Below, piece by piece: positions 3,600-39,857 of a DNA stretch of 44,776 nt. The stretch is taken from positions 1 through 44,776 of IMG/VR virus record IMGVR_UViG_2648501797_000002. One strand, 5' to 3'. This DNA is from a virus. Taxonomy: Duplodnaviria; Heunggongvirae; Uroviricota; Caudoviricetes. Within the stretch, counting starts at the first letter, position 1. The number at the start of each line of letters is the position of its first letter. The notes under the pieces are model-generated. The model saw nothing but the letters and a program-made list of their open reading frames with translations, was not told where the DNA came from and did no database searches. The position numbers and the translations under genes are program-made.

Positions 3600-4571
3600 T
3601 CAGTAACTGATACCGGTATGGGGAATGCGGCCGTCTTTAACCGCTGTAAGCACCTCGATAGCCTGATCCCGAGTAAGGCTGGTATTGGCCAGAAGAGCTT
3701 TGACGATTTCAGTGCCTACAGCTTTGCGGTGCTTAACGTCGGCTTCGCGGCGAGCCTGCTCATCGGCTTTACGTTTCTCCTCAGCCAGGCGGGCCTGTTC
3801 GCGTTGCTCTGCCTCGCGGCGGATGCGATCGGCTTCTTCCTGAGCTTTGCGGCGCTCCGCTTCGATAGCGGCCAGCTTGTCAGCCTCAGCTTTCTTCTCG
3901 GCTGCAATGCGATCTCGCTCTGCCTGCTCAGCTTGTGCTTTCAACACAGCTTCGCGATGCGCCGCTTCTTCACGTTCACGCTGTGCGCGCTGCTCAACTT
4001 CTCGGGCTGCTGCGGCGGCTGCCATTCGCTTAATTTCTTCTTCATGGGCAATGCGCTGGCGCTCAGCCTCAGCTGCTTTATCCGCCTGCTCTCGGTCGAA
4101 AGCGTCATTCATCAGCATGGCCATTTCGTGGTCAGACTCAATCCGAGCTGCCAGCTGCCGATCGAACTCTTCATTCATGGCCAGTGCTTCGACGTGAAGG
4201 GCGTTCATGGCTTCTTCGGCCTTAATGCGTTCCTGCTCCGCCTCCCATTCGGTCAACGGGCGACGCACTTCATCTTTCAGTGCATCGAGACGCTCACGGA
4301 CAACGCGGCGGCTTTCATCAATCTGCTTTGGCAGCGTCTTCAGCTCAGCGACCAGGGCTTTACCTGCGTTGTCGATGTAGGTTTTAGAGCGCGCGACCTT
4401 GTGAGCCATGGATGCGATAGCATCGCGGCCTTTTTTGGTGGTCACGTCCGGCACCAGACTGCGAGCCTCTTTTTCGATCGCTTCGATAAGCGGATCGAGT
4501 TGGTCGTTATTGGTGAAAACCGCCATCGCGTTCTTTTTCTCGATGACGACTAAATCCATTATTTCGCTCAT
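3600..4571 (-). CDS. Hypothetical Ala/Glu/Arg-rich coiled-coil protein
   Basis: 323-aa ORF with a long low-complexity charged helical region (AEQAERDRIAAEKKAEADKLAA...). Confidence 0.55.
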   Translation of the reverse strand: MSEIMDLVVIEKKNAMAVFTNNDQLDPLIEAIEKEARSLVPDVTTKKGRDAIASMAHKVARSKTYIDNAGKALVAELKTLPKQIDESRRVVRERLDALKDEVRRPLTEWEAEQERIKAEEAMNALHVEALAMNEEFDRQLAARIESDHEMAMLMNDAFDREQADKAAEAERQRIAHEEEIKRMAAAAAAREVEQRAQREREEAAHREAVLKAQAEQAERDRIAAEKKAEADKLAAIEAERRKAQEEADRIRREAEQREQARLAEEKRKADEQARREADVKHRKAVGTEIVKALLANTSLTRDQAIEVLTAVKDGRIPHTGISY

Positions 4572-4658
4572 GGTTTCCCCTGAAATTTGGTTGTAAGAAT
4601 CCCGGCACCGTATTGGCTGCCTGATAGCTCAGTTAAATTCGTGCGCTGATATGCGCGG

Positions 4659-4853
4659 TTAATGCGTCCCGGCTGGAACCAGATTCGGCAGCAGGTCGCG
4701 TGCCTCAAATGCTTTGCGAATGTGGCGCAGGTTGCCCTGTGGCTCGAACCAGAAGGTTTCTTTCAGGTAGTCACGTGAAACCTTCCAGGTGGCGCCAGTT
4801 TTAGCGTTACGCATCATCACGGCGCGTCCGCTGTTAGGAATTGAGTTAGCCAT
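4659..4853 (-). CDS. Hypothetical small early protein
   Basis: Start placed at the internal ATG (MANSIP...) overlapping the upstream small peptide stop. Confidence 0.4.
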   Translation of the reverse strand: MANSIPNSGRAVMMRNAKTGATWKVSRDYLKETFWFEPQGNLRHIRKAFEARDLLPNLVPAGTH

Positions 4854-4956
4854 TGAACCCCCCCGTAACGTGCAGAATTTTGATAACAACAGCCGACCAG
4901 ATAACGCCGCAGATCAGCAGGCAGTAAATCAGTGAACGAATGCCTTGTTTGCTCAT
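4846..4956 (-). CDS. Small hydrophobic peptide, 36 aa (MSKQGIRSLIYCLLICGVIWSAVVIKILHVTGGFNG)
   Basis: Hand-translated; single predicted transmembrane helix; ATGA overlap with upstream peptide; below ORF-track size cut-off. Confidence 0.3.
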   Translation of the reverse strand: MSKQGIRSLIYCLLICGVIWSAVVIKILHVTGGFNG

Positions 4957-5060
4957 TTTCCACCCCAGCACTGAATGCTAACTACGAGGACTGCAACCAA
5001 AAACGGAACGACCTTTAACCAAAAATTACGCCATGCAGGCTTGTCTTCTTCGCGGATCAT
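4953..5060 (-). CDS. Small hydrophobic peptide, 35 aa (MIREEDKPAWRNFWLKVVPFLVAVLVVSIQCWGGK)
   Basis: Hand-translated; first gene downstream of the OL region on the leftward strand; one transmembrane helix. Confidence 0.3.
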   Translation of the reverse strand: MIREEDKPAWRNFWLKVVPFLVAVLVVSIQCWGGK

Positions 5061-5144
5061 CTCTTCACCCTTGCCTTAAAGCCGGCCAGCTGAGCGTTGT
5101 TGCGATTACCCGGCGTTGCCGGTGTTGTTTGGATGAGGTAATAA

Positions 5145-5212
5145 TACTCCGGGTATTATTTTATATCAATACCGCTAGTATTATAATATTTAATAAAAAT
5201 ACTAAAGGTATG
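5145..5212. promoter_or_regulatory. OL-type operator cluster: three ATAC-N5-GTAT palindromes (5145-5157, 5170-5182, 5200-5212) in an AT-rich intergenic region
   Basis: Same half-site architecture as the two operators between cI and cro. Confidence 0.5.
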
Positions 5213-5281
5213 ATTTTAAAGTTAATTTATTTTTGTAAAGAGTGCTGTTATGCTCAAAAAAACATCAGTAAGGGTGGCGGC

Positions 5282-5485
5282 ATGTCAAATGAGGATGAGT
5301 TTTTCGCAGAAATGCACCCGCAGATAGCGCAGGTTATCGGGATAGCGGTTATGCAGCTGCTGGTTGAGAAGCGCGAGCCATCAAGAGAGGCGCTGATAGA
5401 GATGATTCAGGTGCTGTGGCAGGGTGACCAGGTAGATCTGGCAGTAGAGCTGGCACTGGATGTGCTGATGCTGAGGGAAGAGTAG
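5282..5485 (+). CDS. Small acidic hypothetical protein (67 aa)
   Basis: ATG with AGGGTGG RBS; transcribed rightward from the OL region, convergent with the downstream cassette. Confidence 0.45.
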   Translation: MSNEDEFFAEMHPQIAQVIGIAVMQLLVEKREPSREALIEMIQVLWQGDQVDLAVELALDVLMLREE

Positions 5486-5524
5486 GGCAGTAACAACCCG
5501 GCGCGGTGGCCGGGTTAACGTCTA

Positions 5525-6442
5525 CTACCAGTTCGGTAGCTCACGCAAAGAATACTTAGGCTTTCCATTACCTACCTGAGTGCAGAGGAATTTTGCAATA
5601 ACTTTTTCTCCGCGGTGATCGTTGATAATGTCTGGATTGTCTATGTAATTACTGATTTTCGCTACAAAAATTGATTTAGATTCATCATGCTCCATAATAA
5701 ACTCGCATTGACGTTTATGAGGAAGGGCTCCCAAGAAGCTAACTTCTAATAACTGCAAATCTTCTTTAACACTATCTTTACTTAGCTTGAGGACCGCTCT
5801 TTCAATATCATTGATATTGTTTGCAACAAGCGCTTGGTTGTTATGCCTTAAAGTAAAAGTTGCTTTGTTATCAAATAGTATTTGTATAAATCCACGTATT
5901 TTATCTAAAGCTCGGTCATCCAAATCACTAATCGCCTCAGCTAGACCATCATCGTCTCCCCTTATACTCATTTGCAGGATAGATTGAGTCTGGTTCAGAG
6001 CTTTTTGAACAGAAGATTCCTCATCAAAGTTAAGCGGGGCATCTGGCCTAAATTCCTCAAGTGTAAATCCAAAAGAACCTTTGGCTGTTCCAGTAATCAT
6101 AAGCAAATTATTTTCAAGATTTGGAATTTTACCTTTGGCCGGTAATTTCCCTGAAAATGAAGATGCAACATGAGAAACCGCATCATTAAAGGCGTTAACT
6201 ATTTTGGTTCCGAAATTTGCAGCTATGCCATATGTACCAAGTACAGGGGCTCCTCTAAATGTTAAAGTGGCTTTAACTGGCGGATGCTCATCGATAACAA
6301 TATGAGAAATCTCATCATTTAGCTCATGGAGCCTGCTTTCAAGGCTCATTTTGCCAATAATGTCATCATCAGTAGTGGTTTCTAAAAGAGACAGGATTGA
6401 GTCCCGCTCACTTAGAACGAACAAGTAATCGTCGCGATTCAT
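5525..6442 (-). CDS. Uncharacterized 305-aa protein, downstream partner of the NTase-fold gene
   Basis: AT-rich ORF, 4-nt overlap with the upstream gene; no motif recognised. Confidence 0.6.
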   Translation of the reverse strand: MNRDDYLFVLSERDSILSLLETTTDDDIIGKMSLESRLHELNDEISHIVIDEHPPVKATLTFRGAPVLGTYGIAANFGTKIVNAFNDAVSHVASSFSGKLPAKGKIPNLENNLLMITGTAKGSFGFTLEEFRPDAPLNFDEESSVQKALNQTQSILQMSIRGDDDGLAEAISDLDDRALDKIRGFIQILFDNKATFTLRHNNQALVANNINDIERAVLKLSKDSVKEDLQLLEVSFLGALPHKRQCEFIMEHDESKSIFVAKISNYIDNPDIINDHRGEKVIAKFLCTQVGNGKPKYSLRELPNW

Positions 6443-7026
6443 TGCTCACCTCCTTCTGATAGCATTGTTTCTAAAATGGTTAATGCCTGTTGATCCAGTG
6501 TAATATCTAGAGGAATCTGCAAGAATCCCTTCCATGTAAGATCCCTTCTATGAGACCACATACTGTACCAATATACAGTCCTTTCTACAAGCTGCTCCTT
6601 AGAAACGCCCAGTGACTGGAAGTAAGAATCAACTCTAAACTCTTGCTTTCTCCACTTACCCATATGTGGCACAAACAGATTCGGGTTACGCATAACGACA
6701 TCTTGCTGCGTTTCGTTAAACGCCAAATTAAAAAAAGTCACAACATCAATGTCATTTGGCGGACGTTTTTCAATGAGTTCAACATCTTCTATGAAACTAC
6801 CATCGATCCATTGAAAACCATCCGTTAACCCAGTTTTATTAATTTCTTTACGAAATTTGATGAAACCGAGTAAGATCTCGATCCTTTGTGGGCTTGTAGC
6901 GTACCGCTCTACAAATTTTAATATATCTGTCTTATATGGGGAGCGATAGGCGCTGGTTGGATGCTCCATATCCATTGGTGGGATTACACCAATTTCATTC
7001 CAGTTAGGAATTTCCTGAATCACCAT
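6439..7026 (-). CDS. Predicted nucleotidyltransferase-fold protein (195 aa)
   Basis: GS...DxD pattern (IDGSFIEDVELIEKRPPNDIDVV) consistent with a Pol-beta-type minimal nucleotidyltransferase; AT-rich. Confidence 0.5.
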   Translation of the reverse strand: MVIQEIPNWNEIGVIPPMDMEHPTSAYRSPYKTDILKFVERYATSPQRIEILLGFIKFRKEINKTGLTDGFQWIDGSFIEDVELIEKRPPNDIDVVTFFNLAFNETQQDVVMRNPNLFVPHMGKWRKQEFRVDSYFQSLGVSKEQLVERTVYWYSMWSHRRDLTWKGFLQIPLDITLDQQALTILETMLSEGGEQ

Positions 7027-7336
7027 GCTGTGGCCTTAAATTTCTTATTGGTTGTAAGAAAAAATGTCATTATTTTCAATGGAGTCATTGATTTTTTTAT
7101 CGCTTTATCAATATGACTTCTCTCGCTCGCTTAATCAGAGCCTTTCTCTGAAATTTCATCAGGGATCGCATAAAATTATTGTTTGCCTCATTCACTGCGC
7201 GAGCGAAGCCTTTCCTTCATTTACTTCTCGTACATGTTATCTAGCCTTCCACCTGAGTCGTAAATATACAATCATTCCCTGTTGTTTTAGGTGGCTTCTT
7301 ATCCATGCTTCCTGTACGTCTGCGGCATGCTGCCGA

Positions 7337-8047
7337 TCACACAAGCCTTAACTTAGTTTCTACGGCCACACCAATGATTCGACAGTTTCCGTTGATGGGA
7401 ACCAATGGCCATTGAGGGTTTAAGCCCTTCAGGTACTTCTGGTCACCATCAATGATCAGTTTTTTGAATGTCGCCTCGTTTGATTCCGAGAGTTTTGCAA
7501 TAACGAGACTTCCGTTGACCGGCTCCCTTCCGGTATCAAAAAGAACATATGTACCCTCTGGTATGCTGAGCCCGACCGGGGCAGTCATGGATTCCCCCTC
7601 GACCAACAACCAGAACGCATCCCCCTGGATGTGAGCGTCTGATTCGAGCCATAGATCGATATCTTTAAGTGCATACGGCTCGCACGCTTCCGACCAATGC
7701 CCAGCCTGAATCTTGCTTAATACAGGGTATTTAATGCCTGGGGTGTACTGGCCTACATACTTGGCATTCGATGTAGCGGCAGCACTCATTGCAGATATTT
7801 CTTTCGCAAGGCTGGGGCTAAAATCAGAGACATCCACCTGGAGGGCTCTGGCAAAAACAGCAGCCACGGCAGCATTAAGGGCATTCCTGCCATTCAAGTA
7901 ATGCCCAACGCCACCCTGAGATATGTCTAGCATGTCAGCTATTGATTGCTGTGTTATCCCAAGCTCTTTTTTCTTGGCTTCATAGAGGGCTTTCAGCCTT
8001 TCTGCGTCAGCGATCTGAGCCGATGTCAGTGTCTTTTTCTTTTCCAT
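7337..8047 (-). CDS. cI: CI-like prophage repressor (HTH plus S24 LexA-like autopeptidase domain)
   Basis: N-terminal HTH (ITQQSIADMLDISQGGVGHYLNG); C-terminal ESMTAP serine motif and FKKL lysine motif like lambda CI; start at ATG 8047, close to the operators. Confidence 0.85.
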   Translation of the reverse strand: MEKKKTLTSAQIADAERLKALYEAKKKELGITQQSIADMLDISQGGVGHYLNGRNALNAAVAAVFARALQVDVSDFSPSLAKEISAMSAAATSNAKYVGQYTPGIKYPVLSKIQAGHWSEACEPYALKDIDLWLESDAHIQGDAFWLLVEGESMTAPVGLSIPEGTYVLFDTGREPVNGSLVIAKLSESNEATFKKLIIDGDQKYLKGLNPQWPLVPINGNCRIIGVAVETKLRLV

Positions 8048-8082
8048 TTTCAAATAGTAATACCAATGCTCTTATTTTAAAA

Positions 8083-8119
8083 ATACTTGCGGTATTGCAA
8101 TGTTTAATACTTGTGGTAT
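8083..8119. promoter_or_regulatory. OR operators (ATACTTGCGGTAT and ATACTTGTGGTAT) overlapping the divergent cI and cro promoters
   Basis: Two 13-bp ATAC-N5-GTAT palindromes between the divergent cI and cro genes; candidate pR as TTGCAA-N17-TATTGT. Confidence 0.55.
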
Positions 8120-8151
8120 TGTTTGCTCATGAGTTGATAGGAGCTAACCAC

Positions 8152-8343
8152 ATGAAAATTTCTTTAGCTGAATACGTTGACGAAGTTGGACAGGCAAGAG
8201 CTGCTGATGCCATCGGCGTTCACCAGACCGCAATTAGTAAAGCTATCCGGGTAGGACGGAAGATTTTCGTTAACACCCTGCCTGATGGAAAAATTAAGGC
8301 TGAAGAGATCAAGCCTTTCCCACATAACAGAAATCCTGATTAA
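8152..8343 (+). CDS. cro: Cro-like repressor
   Basis: 63-aa protein resembling lambda Cro (GVHQTAISKAIRVGRKIFV...AEEIKPFP); GGAG RBS. Confidence 0.85.
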   Translation: MKISLAEYVDEVGQARAADAIGVHQTAISKAIRVGRKIFVNTLPDGKIKAEEIKPFPHNRNPD

Positions 8344-8348
8344 ACAAA

Positions 8349-8390
8349 GCTGAATTGAGCAGTCAGCGGGTTCTGACTGAGTAATTCAGC
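8349..8390 (+). promoter_or_regulatory. Extended imperfect hairpin downstream of cro (GCTGAATT...CAGTCAG-CGGGTT-CTGACTG...AATTCAGC) without a U-tract
   Basis: Inverted repeats read directly; position corresponds to nutR/tR1 in lambda. Confidence 0.3.
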
Positions 8391-8422
8391 CATTCCAAAC
8401 AACACCAGAGGAAGTATCACAA

Positions 8423-8644
8423 ATGGAGAGTTCAACGACACGCAACAAAGTGGAGGCTCGCAGGATAGAAAGCTGGTTACACAGCCAGATAGCTGAACTG
8501 GGAACCACGAATATCGCCAAAGTGGCCGGAGTGAATAAGTCGACGGTGAGTCGCTGGCGGGAAAGCCTGCTGCCGAACATGTCGCTACTGCTGGCCATAC
8601 TGATTTCTAACAGGCCGGGAGAGAAAGGTGACTTTGAAGCATAA
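8423..8644 (+). CDS. cII: CII-like transcriptional activator
   Basis: Resembles lambda CII (RIESWLHSQIAELGTTNIAKVAGVNKSTVSRWRESLLPNMSLLLAIL). Confidence 0.75.
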   Translation: MESSTTRNKVEARRIESWLHSQIAELGTTNIAKVAGVNKSTVSRWRESLLPNMSLLLAILISNRPGEKGDFEA

Positions 8645-17388: not shown

Positions 17389-18186
17389 ATGTCAAGCGAG
17401 GACAAAATTATGGCAACACCGGACTGGGAGGCCATCGAATCGGCATACCGGGCCGGAGTCCTTAGTCTCCGTGATATAGGCGATAAATACGGCGTTACTG
17501 AAGGGGCTATCAGGAAGAGGGCTAAAAAGTTTGATTGGGTACGCAAGGCCAGTACGCAGGTACGCAAAAATGGTACGCAAAGTGGTACGCAAAAGAGTAA
17601 GGCGCGTACCAGCGAAAAGCCTGCCAGCTCTGGCCGTACGCAAAAAAGTACGCAACCAAAATCCGAACCTCCACCAGATACGAAACCGATACGCGGGGTG
17701 CGTACCGATCCGCCGACCAACCCATTCCAACCCGGCAACCAGCAGGCGTTAAAGCATGGTGGCTACGCCCGCCGCCTTCTGCTTAAAGATGAGGTCATTG
17801 AAGACGCGAAGGCGTTGACACTCGAAGACGAATTATTTCGCCTTCGGGCTAACAACCTTGTCGCCGCAGAGAATATTGGCCGGTGGTTGACCAAGCTGGA
17901 TGATGCTGAAGGGGACCAGGAAAGAAAGGTGTTGATGGAAAATATCAGCGCCGCCGAGAAGGCGATGATGCGCAATACCGTTCGTATTGAGTCCATCGTC
18001 GGCACGCTTGCGACGGTAGGCAAAATATTTGCTGATACAGACTATCGCAAGGCTGCTACTGATAAGGTGTCGCTGGAGGCTGATCGTCTTCGCCGTGATG
18101 CAGGTATTGATGATGGCAACGGAGAGCGTGACCTCAATGACTTCTACTCTGACATCCAAACCGACGCTGAATCCGGTCCTGCGTAG
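17389..18186 (+). CDS. Terminase small subunit
   Basis: N-terminal HTH-like region, position directly upstream of terminase large subunit; contains GTACGCA repeat cluster. Confidence 0.65.
   Translation: MSSEDKIMATPDWEAIESAYRAGVLSLRDIGDKYGVTEGAIRKRAKKFDWVRKASTQVRKNGTQSGTQKSKARTSEKPASSGRTQKSTQPKSEPPPDTKPIRGVRTDPPTNPFQPGNQQALKHGGYARRLLLKDEVIEDAKALTLEDELFRLRANNLVAAENIGRWLTKLDDAEGDQERKVLMENISAAEKAMMRNTVRIESIVGTLATVGKIFADTDYRKAATDKVSLEADRLRRDAGIDDGNGERDLNDFYSDIQTDAESGPA
17539..17654 (+). repeat. Cluster of seven direct GTACGCA(A) repeats (plus one inverted copy) within the terminase small subunit gene; candidate pac/TerS-binding site
   Basis: Repeats read directly at 17539, 17552, 17560, 17573, 17585, 17636, 17648. 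Confidence 0.5.
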
Positions 18187-36582: not shown

Positions 36583-37451
36583 TGGCGACTAACGATTTTA
36601 AACCCTTCGCTACTGGTAGCGGGGCAAACGTATTATCACAGGCTGATTATGAAGCGCTATCTGCACTGGCATCAGGGTTTCTTTCCGGCAAAGCCTCGTC
36701 AGCACAAGTAAATAAAGCACTACGGCAATCCTCTACAATTGCTGCCGTCCTTGCGCAATTCATGGCGGATAGCACAGGAAGCGATGTCCTGGATAATGGA
36801 AACATTGCCACATTACTAAATATTCTCAAGTCTGCACTTAATAATCAGGCAGAAGGACGCCTGCTCCGCATTCAGGTTTTTACCGCTAGCGGAGCATGGG
36901 TAAAAGCTGCTGGCACTAAAAAAGTCAGAATCAAGGCATGGGGTGCAGGCGGAGGGGGTAAGGGGACAGACGTCGCAGGGACTGGTGCGCCTAGTGGGGC
37001 GGGTGGTGCATACGTTGAGGGATTATATGACGTAAGCACCATTAATGGGGCGAATATCGTTATTGGCGCTGGTGGTGCGGCAGTTGCTGCAGGGAGTGCA
37101 GGAAATGGGGGTGATGGGGGAGACACTACCATTACCGCTCTGGGTATCTCTGCTGGTGGTGGTAAGGGCGGAAACTCTGCTGGTAATTCTGCTGGCGGAA
37201 TTCCGGGAGCTCCATCTGTTGGGACAATATTCTCAGTGGCTGGTCAGGGAGGACAGGGAGGATCAGGTGTAAGCCTGGGTGGTGTAGGTGGCGCATCGCA
37301 CAGTAGTTATGGTGGCCTTCCACACGTTAGTTCATCCGGTGATGATGGATTTTTCCCTGGTGGAGGTGGTGCTGGCGCATCATATGACTCAATCGCCAGG
37401 GCATCAGGGAAGGGCGCTAACGGCTATGTCATCATTGAGGAGTACGCATAA
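36582..37451 (+). CDS. Tail fibre protein with glycine-rich C-terminal domain
   Basis: Gly-rich repeats (GAGGGGKG..., GGGKGGNSAGNSAGG...) and C-terminal ...GYVIIEEYA; TAATG coupling to the upstream gene. Confidence 0.55.
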   Translation: MATNDFKPFATGSGANVLSQADYEALSALASGFLSGKASSAQVNKALRQSSTIAAVLAQFMADSTGSDVLDNGNIATLLNILKSALNNQAEGRLLRIQVFTASGAWVKAAGTKKVRIKAWGAGGGGKGTDVAGTGAPSGAGGAYVEGLYDVSTINGANIVIGAGGAAVAAGSAGNGGDGGDTTITALGISAGGGKGGNSAGNSAGGIPGAPSVGTIFSVAGQGGQGGSGVSLGGVGGASHSSYGGLPHVSSSGDDGFFPGGGGAGASYDSIARASGKGANGYVIIEEYA

Positions 37452-37648
37452 TGGCAGGTAATTACGCAGTCATTGAAAGTGGAATAGTTAAAAACATCAT
37501 AATTGCGGAAAGCGGTTATGAATATGATGGTGCTGAACTTATCGAATATCCTGAAAGTGTATTTTGCCAGCCAGGGATGTTTTATAACAAGGCAGACGGG
37601 CTATTTTACGATGATAAAGAATATTCAAAAATAAATAGCAAGAATTAA
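37451..37648 (+). CDS. Hypothetical small protein
   Basis: 65-aa AT-rich ORF coupled by TAATG to the fibre gene. Confidence 0.35.
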   Translation: MAGNYAVIESGIVKNIIIAESGYEYDGAELIEYPESVFCQPGMFYNKADGLFYDDKEYSKINSKN

Positions 37649-37706
37649 GTCACTAAATTACCAGAAAGCAAACTGACCTTATGGTCGGTTTTTTATTGGG
37701 GCGACC

Positions 37707-39857
37707 ATGAGTGAATACGATACCGGCAATCCTGTGCCGTCTGCATCCATGCCTGATGCATGGGATAATATGCAGTCTATTGACAAGTTCGTTAATAGCA
37801 GTGATGAAACCATTACCACACGCACAGGCAAACAGTTAGATACTTTGCATGGCGTTAATGTTAAGGCGGACAACCAGCTAACGCAGCAGCAAGCAGACTT
37901 TGAAACCTCGCAAGAAGAAAGGGATGCTGTAGTTGAGGAAACCAGGCAGAACCTGATCCCTCTGAGCAAGCAATACATGACGCTTGCTGATGCGCAGGCA
38001 GATATCGCAAATATCCCGGTGGGGTCTACCACGTATTACCGCAGTCCTGATGATAGCGCGCTGGCTATTGAAGTAATTAACAATGGTGGCACTCTTGAGC
38101 CCACCGGTAGAAAAATGCCATCTAAGAAGTATATAGATGATGAAATTGCTCCTTACTCCCCTTTGTTAAATATAACCCAAGCATCAGAATTCTTTTCCTC
38201 TGATGAATATAAAGATTCTGGGGTCGAAGAGGCTATATTAGATGAAAATAAAAAAACACTACTATCCAGAAAAGGCGCTGAGTGGTTTTTTCAAAAAATA
38301 ATAGCGGGAGAAATCAGCGCAGATGAATTTTCTGCCGAAATCCTTTCAGGTAATGACATTTTGATTTCCGGGCAGAGCCTTCTTGGAATCGTTCCTTTTT
38401 TACAGGCTTCGACATTTGTCGATATATCTGAATTTTCGGATTCGGGGTATGATTCCGCAACTTTTTCTGAAAACAATAGAATCATTGTTGGCATTAAAGG
38501 GACCACCCTTTATTTTAGCAAAATTGTCGTTGGTGATGCTGTAATTGAAGGAAGCGATTTTACAGAGGTAAAGGGTGTTACTGACGCATTATCACCTCTT
38601 CCAGAGTCAGTAACATTTCTCTCACCTGATGAGTATGCAGATAGTGGATACATTTCGGCATCCACATCTGAAAACCTGGTTGTTATCGAGTCGCTGAAAT
38701 CATCGGACCTGACAAACTCAGGTCATCCTGATTACATTGCATTTAGCGAAGAGAAAGGAGGCTATGAGCAGATTTTCCTGTTTGATCGCGATACAGGTCA
38801 GCAGGTTCGTGTAACCAATACATCCAGTAATGAAACCCTGCCACGCGTTGATGGTGATAAGGTTATCTGGCAATCGGACAGGGAGACTAATCGCGCACCG
38901 GGTGGGCAGTATTATTGCTATATCAGTGATCTGACTGAGCACTCTGTAATGTCCAGGCCGATCATTTGCGGGTGGGGCCATTCAATGGTTGACAACCCCC
39001 GTATGCTGACACGCCTGCAGGAGCTAACCGGATACACGGCCTATAACTTTGGCAAAAGCTCACGCACAAGCGTTGGCACAGCTGCTGCTCAGGGTGGGCG
39101 CAGAGCGTATTACGTTCCAGTTGGCGGCAGCATTCCTGCCAGCGGTTCGGTAACTCTTTCTCCGGCAAACCCGGGGCCACTGAGTTATTTTGCCAACGCC
39201 GCAGCATCGACGCCGTTCCACGGTTCTCTGGCTGGCATTCCAGGCAATTTTGCATGGGATGGAACGAATGCCACATTTACCCGTGATGCATCTGGTGATG
39301 CGGTTAGCGTACCTGTTGCCGTGCCATTCATTTGTGATCCGGTGACCACTGGCGCTATTACCGGAGGCATTCCGGCAGGAACATCTTTCCCTCTTCACCC
39401 TGAATGTATAAATATTTTCTGGATGGGAAGGAATAATATTAGCCAGTCAATGCAGGTTCTCAGCGACACTATTGGTGTAGTTGAATACCTTAAATCTCTT
39501 GGGCAGAAGGTTATTATCCTGCCTGATTTTAACAGCAGTGTTGAGCCCCGTGGATCAGCAGGTTATGCAAACGTCATGTTATCAAACAGCATGATTAAAA
39601 AGAAATACCCTGAGTTATGGTGCGAAATTGATAGTGTTGATATGAGGGAAAACTTCGTAAACAACTATAATCCAGCATATTCTCAGGACGTTTCTGACTT
39701 TGGAAATGATATCCCTCCAACTTCATTGAAGTATGACGGACTGCATCCTAGCCAATCGAAAGAAACATCTAACGCCCCTGAATATGCATTGCAGGCTGGC
39801 GCGGACGTAAACGCTGAATTTATTTACCAGAAATTTCAATTATTAGGGTGGGTGTAA
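37707..39857 (+). CDS. Tailspike/receptor-binding protein with central PD40-like beta-propeller region and C-terminal SGNH/GDSL-type esterase domain
   Basis: C-terminal DGLHPS block-V-like motif and GWGHSM block-I-like motif; central YIAFSE...DGDKVIWQSDRE resembles TolB-type PD40 repeats; AT-rich 5' half. Confidence 0.55.
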   Translation: MSEYDTGNPVPSASMPDAWDNMQSIDKFVNSSDETITTRTGKQLDTLHGVNVKADNQLTQQQADFETSQEERDAVVEETRQNLIPLSKQYMTLADAQADIANIPVGSTTYYRSPDDSALAIEVINNGGTLEPTGRKMPSKKYIDDEIAPYSPLLNITQASEFFSSDEYKDSGVEEAILDENKKTLLSRKGAEWFFQKIIAGEISADEFSAEILSGNDILISGQSLLGIVPFLQASTFVDISEFSDSGYDSATFSENNRIIVGIKGTTLYFSKIVVGDAVIEGSDFTEVKGVTDALSPLPESVTFLSPDEYADSGYISASTSENLVVIESLKSSDLTNSGHPDYIAFSEEKGGYEQIFLFDRDTGQQVRVTNTSSNETLPRVDGDKVIWQSDRETNRAPGGQYYCYISDLTEHSVMSRPIICGWGHSMVDNPRMLTRLQELTGYTAYNFGKSSRTSVGTAAAQGGRRAYYVPVGGSIPASGSVTLSPANPGPLSYFANAAASTPFHGSLAGIPGNFAWDGTNATFTRDASGDAVSVPVAVPFICDPVTTGAITGGIPAGTSFPLHPECINIFWMGRNNISQSMQVLSDTIGVVEYLKSLGQKVIILPDFNSSVEPRGSAGYANVMLSNSMIKKKYPELWCEIDSVDMRENFVNNYNPAYSQDVSDFGNDIPPTSLKYDGLHPSQSKETSNAPEYALQAGADVNAEFIYQKFQLLGWV

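Follow-up and report, generated by a model that had tools for sequence, protein, structure and literature searches.

What is encoded by the two genes that the temperate phage genome IMGVR_UViG_2648501797_000002 carries between its left operators (OL) and its cI-type repressor, the position in which lambda carries rexB-rexA, and what might they do for the lysogen? We addressed this question across all 44,776 nucleotides (nt) of this IMG/VR record, hereafter the window, and refer to the gene of 195 amino acids (aa) as A and to the 305-aa gene that follows it as B. The initial annotation, made from the letters of the DNA, had described two minus-strand genes of these lengths with a 4-nt overlap, and the coordinates and the ATGA overlap were both confirmed (Table 1). 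It had also placed the pair in the rexAB slot on the repressor strand, a location now supported by operator palindromes as well as by the repressor call: the 13-bp palindrome ATAC-N5-GTAT has six matches in the window against 0.3 expected, and the matches on either side of the repressor and its downstream genes define OL and the right operators (OR), which places the pair, on the strand of the repressor, in the interval from OL to cI. A ribosome-binding site, GGAGGTG, precedes B, and the abutting or overlapping arrangement of A and B recurs in the called genes of distant relatives and in 79 of 80 genomic loci. An identical copy is present in the chromosome of Escherichia coli sequence type 540 (ST540), in a lambdoid prophage adjoining dsdC, where RefSeq labels A as "DUF6932 family protein" and B as "hypothetical protein".

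Comparison of family models indicates that this cassette is a divergent member of an already catalogued candidate, PDC-M63 (A+B), which originates from the "guilt-by-embedding" study of Payne et al. 2024 (bioRxiv 10.1101/2024.01.29.577857), where the 145 PDC candidates of PADLOC were derived by embedding in restriction, BREX and DISARM operons. PDC-M63 is likewise a cassette of two genes in the order A then B, with an A of DUF6932 type and a B of about 305 aa, and the window pair is adjacent, on the same strand and in the same order, with relatives embedded in type I restriction operons. Protein A is recognised by the PDC-M63A models directly (PDLC04744 at 2.7e-11 and PDLC04745 at 0.0028). The B of the window gives no match to PDC-M63B at E<=1 and its close relatives give marginal, collinear matches (0.0004-0.035), while the B of a divergent phage clade (L211; fetched loci are cited by L numbers) matches the PDC-M63B model PDLC04747 over its full length at 2e-7 and aligns with the window B family at an hhalign probability of 99.2% (E 1e-19). 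It is the direct match of A, together with this bridge for B, that leads to the assignment, and the description of the cassette as undescribed in the initial annotation is accordingly withdrawn. Since the window B lacks a PDC-M63B match and those of its relatives are marginal, the PADLOC models will probably not call a complete system in this clade. No homology was found to any validated system in PADLOC v2 or to CD-NTases. In the literature searched, there was no mention of DUF6932, of PF22014 or of the RefSeq accessions, and the text of DefensePredictor lists other DUFs and not DUF6932. Likewise absent from the literature searched, and new here, are the location of the pair directly downstream of cI in many temperate phages and the structural features described below for the two proteins.

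The analysis of protein A reveals the features of a minimal nucleotidyltransferase, as had been suspected from a GS...DxD pattern that corresponds to residues 74-96. A matches Pfam DUF6932 (PF22014) with 101.7 bits against a cut-off of 27, residues 7-171 covering positions 1-141 of the 142 in the model, and it also matches phrog_9194. Residues G76, S77, E80, E83, D92, D94, K127 and D133 are invariant among 40 A homologues of 40-83% identity, as is a C-terminal YWYxxWxHxR...WKG motif, and across 109 non-identical A-B pairs that cover bacteria, archaea and phages, most of these residues, including G76, S77, D92, D94, K127 and D133, are at least 97% conserved, with E80, Y154 and R161 falling below that level. 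An AlphaFold2 model with a mean predicted local distance difference test (pLDDT) of 89.6 runs from a helix and a strand through the GS element, a helix, the strand bearing DxD and further helices to the strand bearing D133. The hG[GS]...DxD signature of the Pol-beta superfamily and the third carboxylate on the next strand are therefore conserved, and the predicted alpha-beta-alpha-beta-alpha-beta core resembles that of solved members; sequence and profile searches of the PDB with A returned nothing significant. Because the family matches, the conserved catalytic residues and the predicted nucleotidyltransferase-like fold agree, A is very probably a divergent, active minimal Pol-beta nucleotidyltransferase.

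Protein B belongs to a large family of its own. It matches no family in Pfam, NCBIfam or PADLOC beyond sub-threshold hits at chance level, its sole match being phrog_18731. A profile search with B recovered 1705 cluster representatives (clustered at 50% identity) at E<=1e-3 and 590 at E<=1e-30, and the best 150 of the 1705 are mostly about 300 aa long and aligned end to end. In the predicted structure (pLDDT 88), an N-terminal helical hairpin leads into a strand-helix-hairpin unit, which is followed by a helical bundle and, at the C-terminus, by a five-stranded barrel. The strand-helix-hairpin unit bears the invariant motifs T61-F-x-G64 and I116-T-G-T-A-x-G-S-F-G-F126 (ITGTAxGSFGF, 116-126), and the barrel is modelled as an oligonucleotide/oligosaccharide-binding (OB) fold at about 225-301 with a conserved LPxxRxxEF loop. 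In the model, the conserved G238, P241, R244, E247 and F248 lie on strands beta1 and beta2 and in the turn between them, positions that would correspond to the usual ligand face of an OB-fold. The earlier statement that B lacks the HEPN Rx4-6H motif holds: neither a conserved Rx4-6H, an invariant His or Arg pair nor a nuclease-like motif was found. Reading of the sequence by eye gave no evident transmembrane segment or long hydrophobic stretch, the model being that of a soluble, multi-domain protein, and family scans, the model and the fold search gave no membrane, nuclease, TIR, SIR2 or other killing domain. Against the PDB, B yielded nothing significant by sequence or by profile, and Foldseek of the B model gave no match there at E<=0.001. 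The top full-length Foldseek matches were the class I release factors RF1, RF2 and mtRF1, over about 285 columns at E 0.03-0.06 with a template modelling (TM) score of about 0.15, which is not significant. As Pfam reports neither an RF nor a PCRF match, this likeness is treated as no more than a lead. Pfam scans of longer B relatives for fused effector domains gave nothing useful.

A and B form an obligate, ancient and co-evolving unit. Starting from B, A was found directly upstream in all 43 IMG/VR viral loci and in 79 of 80 GTDB species-representative genomes; starting from A, a B homologue was found directly downstream in 80 of 80 viral loci. The distance matrices of A and of B are correlated over the 109 pairs (r = 0.82), and none of 999 permutations reaches this value. 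The single exception among the 80 genomes, L027, looked like a solitary B and retains only a remnant of A, 29 residues on the opposite strand that resemble its N-terminus. The pair is present in more than 100 temperate-phage contigs, and the 80 genomes span Proteobacteria, Planctomycetota, Verrucomicrobiota, Acidobacteriota, Chloroflexota, Clostridiales, Thermotogales, Spirochaetes and Nitrospirae among bacteria and two methanogen metagenome-assembled genomes among archaea.

Decay of the pair was observed on both sides. The core of A is deleted, truncated or frameshifted beside a full-length B in at least nine genomic loci, namely L111 (6708-7008, Pseudomonas brassicacearum), L100, L101, L082, L096, L075, L126, L135 and L148. 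A is reduced in L111 to N- and C-terminal stubs, and the B sequences of L100 and L111 retain the conserved motifs intact, save for F62Y in L111. One phage locus (L050, also fetched as L182) shows the reverse, with an intact A and a frameshifted B.

The neighbourhoods of the pair fall into two recurring settings. Among phages, the same-strand upstream gene is a repressor with helix-turn-helix (HTH) and S24 domains in 8 of 10 sampled divergent loci, and such a repressor is also found upstream in prophages of E. coli, Salmonella, Raoultella and Gilliamella that have different immunity regions. Among the 80 genomic loci, 34 carry a same-strand hsdM, hsdS or hsdR in the flank, typically in the order hsdM-hsdS-A-B-(other cargo)-hsdR, and this embedding in type I restriction operons is the same signature that produced the PDC candidates of PADLOC. 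At least in L099, L117, L134 and L144, B is followed by a restriction gene with no open reading frame (ORF) of 60 aa or more intervening, and in L018 the start of A overlaps the stop of hsdS. Pieces of DarT/DarG and a HepT/MNT module adjoin the pair in some loci, and in L021 an MNT-HEPN pair lies 1.5 kb from A-B. Taken together, the genomic context favours defence.

As a separate observation, some of the copies within restriction operons have a third ORF that adjoins or overlaps B (L018 6469-7038, L073 7932-8549 and L086 at about 7918-8223). It matches the C-terminal half of DarG only (PADLOC DarG at 1.7e-47, positions 161-328 of 329 in the model), and neither a macrodomain nor DarT was seen in L018. 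This ORF may represent a three-gene variant or a remnant of DarTG.

The window cassette is a horizontally mobile two-gene operon that a lambdoid prophage carries as a "moron" in the slot next to its repressor. Its visibly low guanine-cytosine (GC) content had been taken as a sign of horizontal acquisition, and two lines of evidence bear this out. The cassette, at 39.2% GC against 51.7% for the window, is the lowest-GC 1.5-kb stretch: among 866 sliding 1.5-kb windows, just 6 equal it or fall below it, all of them over the cassette (minimum 0.385 at 5601). The slot is also variable in sister Klebsiella phages, in which blastn shows 5517-7298 to be empty or filled with other cargo: the flanks are common, the cassette is absent, homology ends at 5513-5516 and resumes at 7299, and the slot contains almost nothing in one phage and unrelated small ORFs in others. 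Other prophages carry the A-B core (about 5505-7071) downstream of repressors that differ. Neither A nor B had a tblastn match among 50,697 GenBank phage records; only the cassette flanks match Klebsiella phages. Complete E. coli genomes searched by megablast contained no match to the L013 variant.

With regard to function, we consider it slightly better than an even chance that A-B is a module which acts against phages or resembles a toxin-antitoxin system and which the lysogen would express constitutively, A being the enzyme and B a partner that binds or regulates; this estimate applies to the class of system, and the details deserve much less confidence. In lysogens, transcription reading through from cI would supply A and B, and their co-transcription with cI from the promoter for repressor maintenance (PRM) is suggested by analogy with cI-rexA-rexB of lambda. 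A would act as the catalytic subunit and effector that transfers a nucleotide onto a macromolecule, for example the 3' end of an RNA or DNA or a protein side chain. B would be non-enzymatic and would bind A, its OB-fold and conserved glycine-rich hairpin may bind nucleic acid, a nucleotide ligand or a phage product, and B might thereby restrain or direct A until infection. The defence activity is one that we infer from genomic context only, and the A-B complex, the identity of the effector and the substrate of A are put forward in the same spirit. The AbiEii/MenT proteins (DUF1814), which are likewise nucleotidyltransferase-fold members of two-gene abortive-infection or toxin-antitoxin modules, suggest plausibly how A could be the active and potentially toxic member of the pair, although A has no AbiEii/DUF1814 match (Pfam at E<=1 gives DUF6932 only, and PADLOC gives PDC-M63A only) and AbiE and MenAT differ in having the antitoxin gene first and a partner, AbiEi or MenA, that is unrelated to B. 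The likeness to lambda RexA-RexB is positional only: both are two-gene units downstream of cI, between cI and OL and on the same strand, and both are presumably expressed in the lysogen, whereas RexB is a polytopic membrane protein and B is predicted to be soluble, the enzyme fold of A is unrelated to RexA, and Pfam, PADLOC and NCBIfam scans gave no RexA or RexB homology for A or B.

Several points weigh against this reading. The defence or abortive-infection role proposed in the initial annotation is favoured by context, yet deletion of PDC-M63AB from its native prophage in E. coli NILS69 left infection by 10 virulent phages unchanged. In table S8 of Payne et al. (bioRxiv 10.1101/2024.01.29.577857), the A family FAM_00167 pairs with FAM_00523 as PDC-M63, and a more abundant cassette, FAM_00167>>FAM_01519, is marked "Reject"; either of the two could correspond to the window clade. 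B has no recognisable effector domain. The locus with an intact A and a frameshifted B indicates that A alone may be tolerated too, and the 80 genomic loci were found through B, which biases the excess of loci with a damaged A and an intact B; the asymmetry of decay was for this reason rejected as a decider of toxin identity and is only suggestive.

A more ambitious alternative, which we advance tentatively and for its three parts jointly, is that the DUF6932-B pair stands for a kind of nucleotidyltransferase-based immunity with a new mechanism, shared by phages, bacteria and archaea, that upon infection the OB-fold partner steers A to nucleotidylate a translation-related or nucleic-acid target, such as tRNA or ribosome-bound RNA, and that the pair backs up type I restriction as a further layer and, in prophages, takes over the function of RexAB. 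The full-length 3Di profile of B bears a weak, non-significant likeness to class I release factors.

The remaining explanations are not all mutually exclusive and are best weighed against the features that each would predict. The pair could follow the type VII logic of MNT-HEPN toxin-antitoxin systems (e.g. PDB 8xeh), with B as a toxin and A as an antitoxin enzyme that would hold B inactive through nucleotidylylation at residues such as the invariant T61, T117 or S123. MNT-HEPN pairs also have a small Pol-beta nucleotidyltransferase gene first and an overlapping second gene, and they often lie inside type I restriction operons, so that the gene order, the embedding of A-B in such operons, the MNT-HEPN pair close by in L021 and the invariant hydroxyl residues in the glycine-rich hairpin of B all fit. 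However, B is not a HEPN protein, having neither Rx4-6H, an invariant His nor a recognisable toxic domain, and its fold is another one with a C-terminal OB-fold; A has no sequence match to the MNT families in Pfam or PADLOC. Moreover, the loci in which an intact B persists beside a core-less A are evidence against B being a toxin that needs A, as a toxin neutralised by A should be lethal in those with a deleted core (L111, L100, L101, L082, L096 and L148), and we regard this scheme as rather unlikely. The same orphan copies of B, kept without a functional A, speak against a signalling pair in which A makes a nucleotide or oligonucleotide signal, constitutively or on infection, and B is an OB-fold receptor-effector, as in the cyclic oligonucleotide-based antiphage signalling system (CBASS), Hailong and Panoptes. 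A nucleotidyltransferase beside a partner whose OB-fold, with its conserved LPxxRxxEF loop, binds a ligand or nucleic acid is what such a scheme would predict, but A, at 195 aa, has no PADLOC match to the cyclase or nucleotidyltransferase of known signalling systems, B lacks any of the killing domains listed above, and A-B does not combine a CD-NTase-type cyclase with a recognised effector as CBASS and cyclic-nucleotide systems do. We therefore rate signalling as quite improbable.

An equally low probability is given to the possibility that A-B is an accessory or guard of type I restriction, latent or monitoring, which fires when a phage anti-restriction protein disables the complex, following the PrrC paradigm. 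The same-strand association with hsdM, hsdS or hsdR in 34 of 80 species loci, typically between hsdS and hsdR, argues for it, as do the overlap of the A start with the hsdS stop in L018 and the loci with nothing in between. In the window and in relatives fetched from prophage and viral contigs, however, the pair follows cI and the flanks retrieved showed no hsd gene (a result that does not extend to the 80 viral loci reached from A), and dependence on a co-encoded restriction enzyme is therefore not general; a guard role is compatible with the lysogen-expressed module that we favour. It is also conceivable, if unlikely, that the pair has no immune role and is either a selfish addiction cassette that does nothing against phages or a provider of some lysogeny or host-fitness function of the prophage. 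The sole experiment on a relative, that in NILS69, was negative, and mobility, low GC content and persistence are equally expected of a selfish toxin-antitoxin cassette. The occurrence of the pair in archaea and in many bacterial phyla outside prophages nevertheless counts against a lambdoid-specific regulatory role, and the strong association with restriction operons and other defence genes counts against a function unrelated to immunity.

Table 1. Gene pair, slot edges and immunity region in the window, with the proposed catalytic residues of A
Feature	Position	Strand	Description
OL, three ATAC-N5-GTAT operators	5144..5211 (5144-5156, 5169-5181, 5199-5211)		Leftward promoter-like site 5169-5141
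67-aa gene, phrog_3946	5282..5485	plus	Between OL and B, convergent with B; phage backbone
8-bp GC-rich inverted repeat, AACCCGGC-N6-GCCGGGTT	5495..5516		Between convergent stops of B and 67-aa gene; left slot edge
Gene B	5525..6442	minus	305-aa soluble partner (predicted)
A/B start-stop overlap, ATGA	6439..6442	minus	4 nt; translational coupling, read from sequence
Gene A	6439..7026	minus	195 aa; DUF6932, probable minimal Pol-beta type nucleotidyltransferase
AT-rich spacer, cI to A	7027..7298	minus	Belongs to variable slot; boundaries by blastn
42-bp junction, cI stop codon and CGGCAGCATGCCG hairpin	7299..7340	minus	Right slot edge
cI-type repressor, HTH_3 and Peptidase_S24	7337..8053 (7337..8047 in other call)	minus	Directly upstream of cassette, same strand; RefSeq "LexA family protein"
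OR, two ATAC-N5-GTAT operators	8083..8119		Between cI and cro
cro	8152-8343	plus	Position from RefSeq-annotated ST540 copy
Proposed catalytic set of A	G76-S77, D92, D94, D133		Residues; conservation and predicted fold

The edges of the slot have distinct characters. The inverted repeat at the left edge is a possible bidirectional terminator. The 42-bp junction at the right edge is 95-98% identical across phages with different cI alleles and with different or no cargo, and it looks like a conserved recombination junction or an RNA element at the edge of the moron slot; an Rfam scan of 4500-8600 gave no RNA family. In cassette-free phages, homology by blastn stops at 7299, and in cassette copies of other phages the upstream limit of the shared sequence lies at 7071, 7251 or 7328. 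Prediction for the minus strand of the spacer at 7027-7298 gave neither a promoter-like nor a terminator-like site.

The convergent 67-aa gene was considered as a cassette member or antidote and was ruled out, as it is 99% identical in Klebsiella phage vB_Kpn_RAH1, which is without A-B. Its promoter-like site, TTTATA-16-TATAAT at 5160-5187, lies within the OL operators, and cI would therefore repress this gene. A Salmonella prophage has a 68-aa gene of about 30% identity to it at the equivalent position. Elsewhere in the window, the sixth exact operator palindrome (ATACCGTTCGTAT) is located at 17975-17987, distant from the immunity region. The minus-strand gene at 3600-4571 encodes a 323-aa protein rich in Glu, Ala and Arg that is annotated as "TolA protein" in a sister phage, and the 393-aa antisense ORF over it is almost certainly spurious. 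The second-lowest GC stretch of the window (about 42%) lies in the late region at about 37300-39000, where the ORF at 37707-39857 (716 aa), perhaps a tail fibre gene or the like, may also have been acquired or be evolving fast.

Two classic sites of "defence real-estate" hold the pair, namely the cI-proximal moron slot and the gap between hsdS and hsdR. With its breadth, these two characteristic niches and no relative that is solved or characterised, it is a reasonable target for experiments. The window copy is natural and an identical prophage resides in cultivable E. coli (e.g. ST540), while D92, D94 and D133 in A and S123 and E247 in B are clear targets for point mutation, so that what has been a database candidate is open to direct experiment. 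If active, A-B would constitute a widespread immune or addiction module across bacterial phyla, methanogenic archaea and temperate phages.

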